In this document: positions 1-2,308 of the stretch, in pieces
How the letters are laid out: each line of letters opens with the position of its first letter
Numbering within the stretch: position 1 is the first letter of the stretch
DNA from: Dictyostelium discoideum
Lineage: Eukaryota
NCBI GenBank assembly: GCA_000004695.1
Contig: CH709167.1
Span: 1-2,308 of the forward strand
Direction of reading: 5' to 3'
DNA: 2,308 nt
Made by a program: the position numbers and the translations under genes
Notes under the pieces: model-generated
What the model saw: only the letters and a program-made list of their open reading frames with translations
Told to the model about the DNA's origin: nothing
Database searches by the model: none

Positions 1-262
1 TTAATCTGATTTCGGACCCTCCGGATTTGAAATGGGAATTGGGTTTGGCATCAGCTTGAAGTTTGGAAGCAGATGGACTTTTAATCCATTTACGACTTCT
101 TGACAAAAGTTTGGAAGACCCAATTCTTTCCAAACTTGTTTGTGGTGGAACAGACGTCCACCTACTGGTAAGTTTACTTCTTGTTCTTCTGAAAACGGTT
201 GTTGGTACCGTTGGAAGACTTGGTATTGTTGCTACCTGATGCAACATTACTTGGTGATCCAT
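1..262 (-). CDS. Minus-strand open frame from the ATG at 262 to the window edge (87 codons, no stop): MDHQVMLHQVATIPSLPTVPTTVFRRTRSKLTSRWTSVPPQTSLERIGSSKLLSRSRKWIKSPSASKLQADAKPNSHFKSGGSEIRL…. It may be spurious.
   Basis: A stop-free run of 87 codons is unlikely by chance (about 0.5%). However, the composition is basic and S/R/K/P/T-rich, the codon usage is mixed, and the ATG lies only 20 bp from the nearest TATA-like element. The region has a repeated TTGGAAG(AC) motif at 61-70, 111-120 and 211-220, which may keep frames open. Confidence 0.2.
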   Translation of the reverse strand, partial: MDHQVMLHQVATIPSLPTVPTTVFRRTRSKLTSRWTSVPPQTSLERIGSSKLLSRSRKWIKSPSASKLQADAKPNSHFKSGGSEIRL

Positions 263-321
263 TTTTAAGAAAATAAAAACGTATAAATAGTGGCACTAAA
301 AACTAAAACAATTTGATTTAT
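261..321 (+). repeat. Copy 1 of a 61-bp exact direct repeat (atttttaagaaaataaaaacgtataaatagtggcactaaaaactaaaacaatttgatttat). With an 8-nt indel it extends to the shared 'ggaattcc' at 330-337.
   Basis: It is identical to 2105-2165. It contains TATAAATA at 282-289 and lies about 140-200 bp upstream of the ATG at 458. Confidence 0.9.
282..289 (+). promoter_or_regulatory. TATA box (TATAAATA), candidate core promoter for the gene starting at 458.
   Basis: It is a consensus TATA element about 170 bp upstream of the ATG on the coding strand. The intervening sequence is AT-rich with no ATG in a good context. Confidence 0.4.
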
Positions 322-457
322 TTTATTTGGGAATTCCTCCTATATATATTCAAGATACACACACACACAAATTTTATACAAATAATTATTTCTCTTTATT
401 AATTTTTAATATTATTTTTTTTTCTCATATTATAATTTTAGATATCAACAATAAAAT

Positions 458-574
458 ATGTCTACCACTGTTAATAATAATGAAGCCTCTAGTAGTAGTA
501 CCTCTGCCTCTAATAGCGCTGAATCCTTTGATTTAAGAATGAAATCAATGGAGGATCAAATCAACAACAATTGA
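458..574 (+). CDS. N-terminal segment in frame 2 (MSTTVNNNEASSSSTSASNSAESFDLRMKSMEDQINNN*), 38 codons, ending at a TGA at 572-574.
   Basis: Apart from 1031 and 2291, this is the only true ATG with good context upstream of the long ORFs. Its Ser/Asn-rich composition is typical of a yeast N-terminus. Frame 1 is simultaneously open from 532, so a single T gain at 'aattg' (to 'aatttg', 569-573) would fuse the two segments. Confidence 0.4.
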   Translation: MSTTVNNNEASSSSTSASNSAESFDLRMKSMEDQINNN

Positions 575-1092
575 ATAATCATACGACACCACCATCATCA
601 CCCAACATTACAACACCAATAACTTCAGCAGCAATAACCAACACAATAAAGAAATCATTAGGAAAAATTAAAACTGATGATACCGACCACCAGTTGTTAC
701 ATGGTAGCTTCTCTTCTGGTTGTAAAGTCTGTACAACTAATCAAGGTATCCTCTATGGTATTGAGGAAGAAAAAGAAAACCTGATGTTCAAATTCATTGG
801 ATCTTCACCAAACAAGCCAGCTGGAAGTACTTTTGCCAATACTAGCTCCAGAGAAGATGTTCAAGTTATGTGTATCAAGAGATATGGTATTATCGTGTCC
901 AAAGATATTGGTTCAACTATTTATCAATTGGCAAGAAGTAATAATACCGAAACCGAAACCGTCTTAGATGATCTCATTGAAACAGGAAAGTTCGACGAAG
1001 AACTATCAAGATTAGTCTCCTGTGTAACCGATGGAATTAATGGTATTATTTCAACTTGGAATGAAAGTAGAACAATTAGAGTTTTCCAATAA
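571..1092 (+). CDS. Main frame-1 segment of the hypothetical protein, 173 aa. Frame 1 is open from 532 and has no ATG of its own; the track start is TTG.
   Basis: This is the longest ORF in the window and has yeast-preferred codons. It is probably continuous with the 458 ATG segment after a 1-nt frame correction. I recognise no domain. Confidence 0.55.
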   Translation: MNNHTTPPSSPNITTPITSAAITNTIKKSLGKIKTDDTDHQLLHGSFSSGCKVCTTNQGILYGIEEEKENLMFKFIGSSPNKPAGSTFANTSSREDVQVMCIKRYGIIVSKDIGSTIYQLARSNNTETETVLDDLIETGKFDEELSRLVSCVTDGINGIISTWNESRTIRVFQ

Positions 1093-1387
1093 AGTCCGTG
1101 TTCGTTTATTCATGAAGTTATACAACAAGAAAATTCAACACGAGCTCGCTACCAGTGCAAATGCTGTCTACAATAATTCAATTGGGTGGAATGAATTCAA
1201 ATTGGCTGTACAACAAGAGATTTCAATTGGTGAACAATATAATCTCCAAAAGCTCAAGAAGATGTTAGTCATTTCATTTAATGTCCAAGGTAACGTAAGT
1301 ATTAGTGAACACTCTAAAGCTTTCATAAAAAACGTTAACCAATTAAGAAATACCCAAATCAGTTTCCAAATGACGCTGTCCTGTTAG
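1031..1387 (+). CDS. Frame-2 segment of the same hypothetical protein, 118 aa. Frame 2 is open from 1028.
   Basis: It overlaps the end of the frame-1 ORF by about 60 nt with both frames open. A one-base change in the T run at 1081-1085 ('gttttcc') would join ...TIRV to SNKVRV.... Confidence 0.5.
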   Translation: MELMVLFQLGMKVEQLEFSNKVRVRLFMKLYNKKIQHELATSANAVYNNSIGWNEFKLAVQQEISIGEQYNLQKLKKMLVISFNVQGNVSISEHSKAFIKNVNQLRNTQISFQMTLSC

Positions 1388-1524
1388 GATGGTATTTCGA
1401 GACGTTACCAATCCAAGTAAAGGATTCAGATGCAGCATCTACCATCGTTACTTCAGGAACCAATTTGATAGGAGGAATAGGTAGAAGTTATCAACAAGCA
1501 ATCGTTGGTAACATTAACCTCTGA
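1339..1524 (+). CDS. Frame-1 open stretch of 62 codons (PIKKYPNQFPNDAVLLGWYFETLPIQVKDSDAASTIVTSGTNLIGGIGRSYQQAIVGNINL) that bridges the two frame-2 ORFs. It may be coding, or it may be intron sequence.
   Basis: It is the only stop-free frame across 1388-1480 and has a protein-like composition. It also lies inside the candidate intron at 1295-1574. Confidence 0.25.
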   Translation, partial: PIKKYPNQFPNDAVLLGWYFETLPIQVKDSDAASTIVTSGTNLIGGIGRSYQQAIVGNINL

Positions 1525-1786
1525 TATCGGTAGAAACGAAACCGATGCTACTAACAAATTTTATTCCGTTCTAGATTCTTATGTTCCAGTGAAGGAAGTA
1601 AGAATAAACCAAATACAAAATTATAGATTCAATAATTCCAATAGTCAAGGTCGTGCAGGTGGTTCCAATAATCAAGATGAATCTGATGGTCAATATCTTA
1701 GCAATGGATTCAACAATGGTTCAAGATTTAATAATGGCCAAAGATTTGATAATAACTCAAGGTTCTCTGGTAATCCAAGGTTTTAA
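1505..1786 (+). CDS. C-terminal frame-2 segment (open from 1481), Asn/Gly/Ser/Arg-Phe-rich (…NGFNNGSRFNNGQRFDNNSRFSGNPRF*).
   Basis: This is a 93-aa track ORF whose TTG start is not a real initiation codon. It ends at a TAA at 1784-1786, followed by an AT-rich terminator-like flank. Confidence 0.45.
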   Translation: MVTLTSDIGRNETDATNKFYSVLDSYVPVKEVRINQIQNYRFNNSNSQGRAGGSNNQDESDGQYLSNGFNNGSRFNNGQRFDNNSRFSGNPRF

Positions 1787-1925
1787 TATTGGCCCAAGAA
1801 GTTCCAATAATTATGATAGAAACTTAAAAATTTAATTTATTAAATTATATTTTATATTAAATATATATATATATATATATTATGAATAACATTTATTTAT
1901 TTGAATTTCCCAAATATTTAAGATA
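1787..1925 (+). terminator. AT-rich 3' flank of the gene, likely the 3' UTR and polyadenylation region.
   Basis: It carries TATATA-type and A-rich elements downstream of the TAA at 1786 (aataattatgatagaaacttaaaaatttaatttattaaattatattttatattaaatatatat). No discrete hairpin terminator is expected in a eukaryote. Confidence 0.3.
1826..1880. repeat. Left arm of a perfect inverted repeat: aaaaatttaatttattaaattatattttatattaa followed by (AT)10.
   Basis: Positions 1826-1876 are the exact reverse complement of 2200-2250 (51 of 51 nt). The arm begins inside the 3' end of the frame-3 ORF at 1833-1835. Confidence 0.85.
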
Positions 1926-1932
1926 ATTTTTT

Positions 1933-1952
1933 AGAATGTTCTAGAACATTCG
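1933..1952. promoter_or_regulatory. Heat-shock element, four perfect contiguous inverted nGAAn units: aGAAtgTTCtaGAAcaTTCg. It is also an 18-bp perfect palindrome, GAATGTTCTAGAACATTC.
   Basis: The alternating GAA and TTC triplets at exact 5-bp phase match the Hsf1 trimer site consensus, which needs at least 3 units. The element lies about 175 bp upstream of the TATA box at 2126. Confidence 0.5.
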
Positions 1953-1958
1953 AAGAAT

Positions 1959-2083
1959 AAAAAATTTTCGAAAGAAAAGTAAAAATTTCGAACCGGCACA
2001 ATGACGCGATCATTGTGTAAGGTCGAAAAACTGAAAAATTCCGAACCGACACTATGCACAAAGTTGTGAAGGGTCGAAAACTC
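1959..2083. repeat. Imperfect tandem repeat of about 50 bp. One partial unit (1959-1980) is followed by two units (1981-2033 and 2034-2083), each starting AAAAATT(T)(C)CGAACC and ending GGTCGAAAA(A)CT.
   Basis: Units A and B align at roughly 70% identity. CG-containing motifs (TTCGAA, CGAACCG, GGTCGAAAAC) recur in a region that is otherwise almost free of CpG. Confidence 0.6.
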
Positions 2084-2104
2084 TTATTTTTTGAGTTTTG
2101 CGAA

Positions 2105-2165
2105 ATTTTTAAGAAAATAAAAACGTATAAATAGTGGCACTAAAAACTAAAACAATTTGATTTAT
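2105..2165 (+). repeat. Copy 2 of the 61-bp exact direct repeat. It extends to the shared 'ggaattcc' at 2166-2173.
   Basis: It is identical to 261-321. It contains TATAAATA at 2126-2133, about 165 bp upstream of the ATG at 2291. Confidence 0.9.
2126..2133 (+). promoter_or_regulatory. TATA box (TATAAATA) in repeat copy 2, candidate core promoter for a downstream gene starting at 2291.
   Basis: It sits in the same sequence context as 282-289. An ATG at 2291 with A at -3 lies 165 bp downstream. Confidence 0.4.
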
Positions 2166-2179
2166 GGAATTCCGACTAA

Positions 2180-2195
2180 GGGCGGGTGGGATGGG
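2180..2195 (+). other. G-quadruplex-forming motif GGGcGGGtGGGatGGG (G3N1G3N1G3N2G3).
   Basis: Four G3 runs with 1-2 nt loops form a GC island inside sequence that is more than 85% AT, between the TATA box at 2126 and the ATG at 2291. Confidence 0.45.
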
Positions 2196-2199
2196 ACTA

Positions 2200-2250
2200 A
2201 TATATATATATATATTTAATATAAAATATAATTTAATAAATTAAATTTTT
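2200..2250. repeat. Right arm of the inverted repeat: (AT)8 followed by ttaatataaaatataatttaataaattaaattttt.
   Basis: It is the exact reverse complement of 1826-1876. Together the arms bracket the HSE, the tandem repeats, the TATA repeat copy 2 and the G4 motif. Confidence 0.85.
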
Positions 2251-2263
2251 AATTTATATTATC

Positions 2264-2289
2264 ATATATATATATATATATATATATAT
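2264..2289. repeat. (AT)13 microsatellite immediately upstream of the ATG at 2291.
   Basis: The run is seen directly. Further (AT)n tracts lie at 1861-1882 and 2200-2215, and (AC)6 lies at 357-369. Confidence 0.9.
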
Positions 2290-2290
2290 T

Positions 2291-2308
2291 ATGAAATTTG
2301 GACGACAG
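2291..2308 (+). CDS. Possible 5' end of a downstream gene (ATG AAA TTT GGA CGA CAG = MKFGRQ…), truncated by the window edge.
   Basis: The ATG has A at -3, and GC content rises abruptly after a long AT-rich leader. A TATA box lies 165 bp upstream and the HSE about 340 bp upstream. Only 6 codons are visible. Confidence 0.2.

Follow-up and report, generated by a model that had tools for sequence, protein, structure and literature searches.

Two identical 61-nt TATA-box segments in an unplaced Dictyostelium discoideum contig as probable inner ends of DIRS-1 terminal repeats

Introduction

Why should one and the same TATA-bearing segment stand twice, base for base, within 2.3 kb of AT-rich DNA and ahead of two different start codons? 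The question is raised by CH709167.1 of the Dictyostelium discoideum AX4 assembly (GenBank assembly GCA_000004695.1), an unplaced contig that is treated here in its entirety (positions 1 to 2,308 of the forward strand; "the window"). A repeat search of the window gives positions 261-321 and 2105-2165 as a direct repeat of 61 nt, 100% identical, at a spacing of 1844 nt. From the base counts of the window (A850 T731 G370 C357) the per-base match probability is ~0.285 and the chance expectation of an exact 61-mer pair in 2.3 kb is ~1e-27; the pair is beyond chance. The original prediction, made from the sequence alone, had also noted that both copies are followed by GGAATTCC, with an 8-nt insertion in copy 1, and that the sequences then part company. 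These observations are borne out: local alignment carries the match over the 8-nt gap (TTTATTTG, copy 1 only) to GGAATTCC in both copies, and the sequences beyond bear no relation to each other.

The answer reached here, at a probability of roughly 95%, is that both 61-mers are the inner, TATA-box ends (positions 253-313) of the inverted terminal repeats (ITRs) of two independent fragments of the long-known centromeric tyrosine-recombinase retrotransposon DIRS-1, and that they carry the TATA box of the DIRS-1 ITR promoter. The DIRS-1 ITR of D. discoideum, also called a long terminal repeat (LTR), is reported to have been described by Zuker et al. in 1984 and Cappello et al. in 1985. Copy 1 would be what is left of a left-type ITR after a cut at position 253 and a head-to-head join with a further DIRS-1 fragment in inverted orientation, and it continues into the leader and the first 37 codons of open reading frame (ORF) 1, while copy 2 would sit in the complete right-type ITR of a DIRS-1 that entered the dead gag gene of an LTR retrotransposon in inverted orientation. 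The window as a whole is a mosaic of transposon debris of the centromere type.

The reference element and the position of the 61-mer

The reference for mapping is a complete 4825-bp DIRS-1 at positions 5552-10376 of locus L001. Around the ORF1 protein P0020 this locus holds the DIRS-1 coding set, i.e. a 335-aa ORF1 followed by genes with reverse-transcriptase (RT; PF00078), RNase H (PF17917/PF17919) and phage-integrase, or tyrosine recombinase (YR; PF00589), domains. Self-comparison of L001 yields an ITR core of 313 nt, 5552-5864 against 10347-10036, inverted and 99.4% identical, whose last 61 nt are the 61-mer. The two repeats are similar and non-identical, with a 29-nt outer extension on the right and an 8-nt inner insertion on the left. 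The canonical ITR (~320 nt) has TATAAATA at 274 and heat-shock elements at 81-98; the ORF1 ATG lies at element position 450, ~170 nt downstream of the TATA box, and the frame-1 ORF (ORF3) ends at position 4371. GenBank M11339 is taken here to be the canonical DIRS-1 sequence. An internal complementary region (ICR) of L001 occupies 9916-10003, of which 9916-9949 pairs with 5551-5584 (34 nt) and 9947-10003 with 10320-10376 (57 nt). Published descriptions give DIRS-1 as 4814 bp with non-identical inverted LTRs (PMC7192593, PMC5633606) and the ICR as 88 nt, made up of 55 + 33 nt (PMC7192593).

Both 61-mers map to this element. Window 261-568 corresponds to L001 5804-6111, i.e. DIRS-1 253-560, at 99.0% identity, and window 1824-2308 corresponds to L001 10374..9903, i.e. 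DIRS-1 4823..4352 inverted, at 96.3%, comprising the right ITR, the ICR and the last codons of ORF3. Window 1851-2165 also matches the left ITR (L001 5552-5864) at 97.2%, because each ITR is an inverted version of the other, which makes the right ITR resemble a left one on the plus strand when the element lies inverted. The window carries one complete right-type and one truncated left-type repeat.

Copy 1 (261-321, plus strand) is ITR 253-313 of a left-type ITR truncated at 253. Its TATAAATA lies at 282-289, the TATA box being preceded by no more than 21 nt of ITR, and heat-shock elements are absent. The left-ITR-specific TTTATTTG follows at 322-329 and GGAATTCC, the last ITR bases common to the right ITR, at 330-337. 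The DIRS-1 5' leader (338-457) and ORF1 codons 1-37 (458-568) then run on the same strand at 99% identity to L001 up to 6111, and the homology stops at 568 within a CAA-repeat.

Copy 2 (2105-2165) is ITR 253-313 of the complete right-type ITR of a second, inverted DIRS-1, here termed element Z, that occupies 1821-2173 on the minus strand, with the outer terminus at ~1821-1824 and the inner end GGAATTCC at 2166-2173. The 61-mer is followed directly by the right-type sequence GGAATTCCGACTAAGGGCGGG; its TATAAATA, at 2126-2133, points into element Z, antisense to the DIRS-1 genes. A pattern search on the canonical ITR places a putative heat-shock-element array, GAAtgTTCtaGAAcaTTC, at ITR 81-98 of element Z, i.e. 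window 1934-1951; the array is missing from the truncated copy 1. Beyond the ITR lies the ICR of element Z (2200-2287, minus strand), in which 2200-2255 complements the outer end of the right ITR, 1821-1876 (a 56-nt inverted repeat, 98% complementary by repeat search), and ~2252-2285 is identical to the initial 34 nt of a left ITR, the same architecture as in L001. The 3' end of DIRS-1 ORF3 (2288-2308, minus strand) completes the window and is antisense on its plus strand.

The limits of the 61-nt match follow from this arrangement. The match begins at 261 since copy 1 is truncated there, while copy 2 has 254 nt more of the same repeat family upstream (1851-2104), and it ends where it does because of the fixed 8-nt difference between left and right ITRs. 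The left and right ITRs of DIRS-1 are mutual inverted copies, and turning an element around therefore puts its right ITR in direct orientation with the left ITR of an unturned one; similarity then stops at the inner ITR boundary because each copy enters a different internal part of DIRS-1.

Left- and right-type copies in five loci

A survey of ITRs by BLAST and alignment covered ~77 kb in five loci that represent D. cf. discoideum and three D. discoideum assemblies. The 61-mer is not confined to two sites before real genes: 18 ITR copies in the five loci span the segment, identical or near-identical and always at the same ITR position, the exact 61-mer (100%) being present at three ITRs of L001. 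The left/right signature divides them cleanly, TTTATTTG standing before GGAATTCCTCC... in all six left-type copies, one of them from D. cf. discoideum, and in none of the 11 right-type copies, which run GGAATTCCGACTAAGG..., some with one mismatch; the remaining copy of the 18 has a different rearrangement. Because TTTATTTG is split in the same way between the two window copies, the ITR end is of the left type in copy 1 and of the right type in copy 2, and the two come from different elements. Neither local duplication nor gene conversion is therefore needed, and the very recent event of that kind once proposed from the perfect identity finds no support in a left-type and a right-type end of two DIRS-1 fragments, with 18 ITR copies in the five loci. 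Across the genome the 61-mer is expected at ITR 253-313, followed by TTTATTTGGGAATTCCTCC in left-type and by GGAATTCCGACTAAGG in right-type repeats. DIRS-1 accounts for 3.3% of the genome (PMC5006619) and for about half of the DNA at the centromeres, mainly as fragments (PMC2665215), so that the window contributes just two 61-nt (+8) direct repeats to a population of hundreds of ITRs.

In an alignment of 15 ITR copies the 61-mer segment varies only by single-base changes in A-runs. When ITRs of L001, L002, L003, L005 and window 1851-2173 are aligned, D. discoideum and D. cf. discoideum share a conserved outer ~135 nt that includes the heat-shock elements and a conserved inner ~75 nt that includes the TATA box and the 61-mer, and the middle, ~140-250, is diverged and in D. 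cf. discoideum largely deleted. Within the window this variable middle (1988-2085) holds an imperfect internal duplication of ~51 nt, TTCGAACCGGCACAATGACGCG...GGTCGAAAAAC and TTCCGAACCGACACTATGCAC...GGTCGAAAAC. All five copies in L005, from assembly GCA_054859385.1, share the private variants AAAAA-GTATAAATA and AAACT-AAAAC; such homogeneity within an assembly would fit recent amplification from a few source copies per strain.

Promoter function and the meaning of conservation

Both terminal repeats of DIRS-1 have been shown to act as promoters. The left LTR has promoter activity for a 4.5-kb sense mRNA, for which PMC3950715 cites Cohen et al. 1984. The right LTR drives a GFP reporter in one orientation, being the likely source of the ~4-kb antisense lasDIRS-1 (PMC3950715). 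Heat shock induces a 900-nt antisense E1 RNA of DIRS-1 (PMC3950715), and, to go by the title of Zuker et al. 1984 as listed in PMC2175303, the DIRS-1 repeats were originally described with a heat-shock promoter. On the basis of this literature and by inference, the TATA box of the ITR promoter lies within the 61-mer. In the left ITR the 4.5-kb genomic mRNA would start from it, close to the inner edge of the repeat, and in the right ITR the antisense RNAs, i.e. the heat-shock-induced 900-nt E1 and the ~4-kb lasDIRS-1; transcription would begin some tens of bases 3' of the TATA box at ITR 274. The mobile promoter cassette that had been offered among other explanations of the pair was thus right in kind, the segment being the TATA-bearing inner end of the DIRS-1 ITR and both LTRs being promoters. 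The accompanying expectation that many copies away from genes would mark a dispersed repeat rather than a promoter held in its first half only: the segment is a dispersed repeat and is a promoter as well.

As to the two copies in the window, copy 2, with a full ITR and the heat-shock elements at 1934-1951, should still fire rightward, antisense into element Z, whereas copy 1, with no ITR sequence left beyond the 21 nt that precede its TATA box, probably has little or no activity. Should the truncated core at 261-337 fire nonetheless, a read-through RNA could result that comprises DIRS-1 leader, dead gag and the right end of the inverted DIRS-1; with both 56-bp arms of the ITR end and ICR, and with antisense DIRS-1, such an RNA might serve as a fixed double-stranded RNA (dsRNA) trigger for DIRS-1 silencing through the RrpC/AgnA small-RNA pathway. 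This chain of events is quite improbable. An RNA with both arms of the hairpin 1821-1876 / 2200-2255 folds at -119 kcal/mol, against -66 for shuffles (z = -9.7). The stem itself is a known feature of DIRS-1, and normal DIRS-1 transcripts are not expected to hold both arms.

Of the alternatives considered, the one that survives best leaves the DIRS-1 identity as it is and holds that conservation of the 61-mer reflects a role in replication, instead of or besides the promoter. In the Cappello model the cDNA would rebuild the missing left ITR on a retained right-ITR template, which would need matching inner ends, comparable to the R regions of retroviruses. The conservation of precisely the inner ~75 nt and outer ~135 nt of the ITR, with the middle deleted or diverged in D. 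cf. discoideum, favors such a role, as does the finding that the mRNA retains little of the left LTR and next to nothing of the right one, the left LTR being restored from residual right-LTR sequence (PMC7192593). On the other hand, the TATA box and its ~170-nt distance to the ORF1 ATG fit a core promoter, and promoter activity of both LTRs has been shown experimentally (PMC3950715). A replication role is accordingly considered possible, although the less likely account of the conservation; the two roles are not mutually exclusive.

Arrangement of the locus

The left part of the window (1-260, minus strand) is a further inverted DIRS-1 fragment, X, of about DIRS-1 ~1628..1368, in which the 3' end of ORF1 is overlapped by the beginning of the RT frame. 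By blastn, window 3-263 corresponds to L001 7179..6919, i.e. DIRS-1 1628..1368 inverted, at 96.9%. ORF1 ends here in ...GSPSNVASGSNNTKSSNGTNNRFQKNKK with its stop at 174-176, and the RT frame starts GGRLFHHKQVW...; in L002 fragment X runs on leftward via RT and YR to a right ITR. The C-terminus of P0020, ...GSPSNVASGSNNTKSANGTNNRFQKNKK, is encoded on the minus strand at window 174-257, and because the P0020 N-terminus matches the ORF that starts at 458, both ends of ORF1 are present in the window in opposite orientations. All that the window contains of the DIRS-1 coding set is codons 1-37 of ORF1, the 3' end of that ORF together with the beginning of the RT frame, and the 3' end of ORF3.

At the junction 258-263, inverted DIRS-1 position 1368 meets forward position 253 head-to-head with 3 shared nt, ATT. 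Since no element terminus lies there, the junction is a deletion or illegitimate-recombination scar and not an insertion site. A reminiscent but distinct ITR/ORF1 junction occurs at L005 14890-14978, where the inner end of an ITR (225-313) is followed, after GGAAT, by an inverted ORF1 3' end. DIRS-1 inserts into DIRS-1 and so builds fragmented centromeric clusters (PMC5006619, PMC2665215). The reference DIRS-1 of L001 illustrates this known DIRS-into-DIRS preference, itself sitting in another DIRS-1: its flanks, 5400-5553 and 10374-10500, recur in L001 as 8651-8804 and 8802-8928, two stretches that overlap by 3 nt where the insertion took place.

The reality of the arrangement bears on a further alternative, that the contig is an assembly chimera of DIRS-1 copies and another repeat, in which case the 1.84-kb spacing would not be real. 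A 2.3-kb unplaced contig made up almost wholly of repeats invites this suspicion, the more so as such leftovers of the AX4 assembly derive from unplaceable reads (PMC2665215). Against it stands the recovery of the same sequence in a different assembly, GCA_054883475.1, where the window equals positions 7546-9851 of a locus in a 43.8-kb contig, 100% over 2306 nt with all junctions and frameshifts, and where inverted DIRS-1 fragments run on both sides. A chimera is for these reasons very improbable. A laboratory expression vector, considered on account of AT-rich promoters of actin type, was likewise rejected, the window matching genomic DIRS-1 and sitting in the 43.8-kb genomic contig.

The two copies had also been proposed to mediate deletion or tandem amplification of the intervening gene by unequal crossover, and this in turn to relate to the frameshifts in that gene. 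Unequal crossover between the copies is possible in principle, but it finds no trace in the data at hand: a published analysis of the centromeres that sought tandem units across integration and truncation borders found none and considered such crossovers rare (PMC2665215), and no variant of the locus was found, GCA_054883475.1 having the same arrangement. The proposed connection to the frameshifts is not supported, the intervening sequence being a decayed gag gene whose relatives are broken too.

Downstream start codons

Of the two start codons that had drawn attention to the pair, the one at 458 is real in that it is the genuine start of DIRS-1 ORF1, here reduced to an ORF of 38 in-frame codons (458-574) that closes at the stop 572-574. 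The remainder of the "gene" past this ORF1 stub is different sequence in another frame. In a protein search ~60 D. discoideum proteins, many of 335 aa, match only the first 38 residues of the ORF, with ~80-100% identity. An in-frame fusion protein of DIRS-1 ORF1 and gag was considered and rejected, the parts lying in different frames and ORF1 stopping at 572-574. The other start codon, the "MKFGRQ" ATG at 2291, shares bases with the complement of the stop codon of DIRS-1 ORF3. It opens just a 16-codon ORF, antisense to the end of ORF3, that reads MKFGRQYLRNHQIFHQ in L002 and has the same length in the canonical copy. Neither downstream ORF is a host gene. Two public gene models in window 458-1786, P0001 (ACTFIT_009742) and P0002 (DDB_G0294302), bridge the frameshifts of the region by invented introns; both are annotation artefacts, and ACTFIT_009742 in addition fuses the DIRS-1 ORF1 start to the gag pseudogene.

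A host promoter segment, recently copied within the locus or made uniform by gene conversion ahead of two unrelated genes, would account for 61/61 identity in AT-rich non-coding DNA and for a TATA box in both copies, but this reading has next to no probability when all DIRS-1 ITRs examined carry the segment at one ITR position, copy 2 stands within a full ITR and copy 1 runs into DIRS-1 leader and ORF1, the 8-nt signature assigns the copies to different ITR types, and no host gene is found among the downstream ORFs.

Nothing found contradicts the identification of the 61-mers as DIRS-1 ITR ends. Three points qualify the reading as a whole: the genome-wide number of 61-mers is an extrapolation from five loci and the published abundance of DIRS-1; the activity of the two window copies and their exact start sites are inferred; and an assembly chimera is unlikely provided that GCA_054883475.1 is independent of the AX4 reference.

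The intervening gag-like pseudogene

Between the two DIRS-1 fragments, window 569-1820 (plus strand, DDB_G0294302) is a gag-like pseudogene of Ty3/gypsy type that is not DIRS-1, is truncated at both ends and is multiply frameshifted. Its 5' cut is the DIRS-1 ORF1 stub and its 3' cut the complete terminus of inverted DIRS-1; to judge by this sequence, the end of element Z in gag looks like a true DIRS-1 insertion. Only two loci, both of D. cf. discoideum, match 569-~1820, with 73-80% nucleotide identity: window 611-1409 corresponds to L003 6816-7608 (80%), and window 574-1439 plus 1667-1767 to L004 8216-9014 plus 9092-9192 (73-79%). The related sequences lie at L003 6769-7619 and L004 7992-13252.

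The homologue in L004 supplies the context that the window lacks. Its gag-like region (8001-9192) lies upstream of a CX2CX4HX4C knuckle, CFKCGREGHITKDC, at 9350, a DSGA protease motif at 9641, RT/RNase H at 10217-11344 and an integrase at 11365-12918, all within direct repeats of 348 nt that are 97% identical. The CX2CX4HX4C motif is absent from the window, the element there being cut by DIRS-1 ahead of the knuckle. Window 569-1820 would accordingly seem to represent the N-terminal part of a Ty3/gypsy-type gag, the label "gag" resting on position and colinearity. In Pfam the reconstructed ORF pieces matched no family at E <= 0.1 and the minus-strand ORF gave nothing significant, and an Rfam scan of the window returned no family.

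The D. cf. discoideum relatives of this gag are also broken, and the frameshifts are the ordinary decay of a dead transposon gene. Sequencing errors were rejected as their source, the same frameshifts being present in the second assembly. The integrase core of the L004 element is ~24-37% identical to those of Skipper-1, Skipper-2 and DGLT-A and 38% to that of P. pallidum DGLT-A1, as read from an error-containing machine-read version of a published alignment. Protein searches find few relatives of the L004-type integrase, in D. cf. discoideum and D. dimigraforme and as one D. discoideum fragment. A tRNA scan of L002-L004, Skipper-2 and DGLT-A being elements that adjoin tRNA genes, found no tRNA gene in these loci. 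The gag remnant may represent a low-copy LTR family not catalogued for D. discoideum.

Relation to known elements and significance

With 96-100% nucleotide identity to complete genomic copies, the repeats of the window belong to DIRS-1 itself and are not mere analogues of it; they share the TATA position, the heat-shock elements, the 8-nt left/right difference and the ICR complementarity. They differ in that copy 1 is without ITR positions 1-252 and is joined to an inverted ORF1 fragment, and in that ORF1 is cut after codon 37 and abuts gag. These truncations and joins are private rearrangements of the locus and no new kind of element. In having a TATA promoter within a dispersed terminal repeat that reads into downstream DNA, the DIRS-1 ITR resembles the LTRs of retroviruses and LTR retrotransposons, including solo LTRs. 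Unlike these, the repeats of DIRS-1 are inverted, so that the second repeat drives antisense and not read-out transcription, and DIRS-1 integrates by a tyrosine recombinase and relies on the ICR. The gag pseudogene, for its part, compares with the dictyostelid Ty3/gypsy elements Skipper-1, Skipper-2 (= DGLT-P) and DGLT-A in that its D. cf. discoideum homologue is followed by CCHC knuckle, protease, RT/RNase H and integrase, and with Skipper in that it lies in DIRS-rich DNA; what may set it apart from all three is the low identity of the L004 integrase core, together with the small handful of protein relatives.

The 61-mer is part of a transposon promoter that is already known, described in 1984-85 and re-examined experimentally in 2014-2020, and the consequence of its recognition here is mainly the correct annotation of the locus. 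Read-through from copy 1, if true, would make the locus a fixed source of dsRNA feeding the silencing of DIRS-1. The conserved inner end and outer third of the DIRS-1 ITR are, in addition, a small pointer to where in the repeat its function is located.

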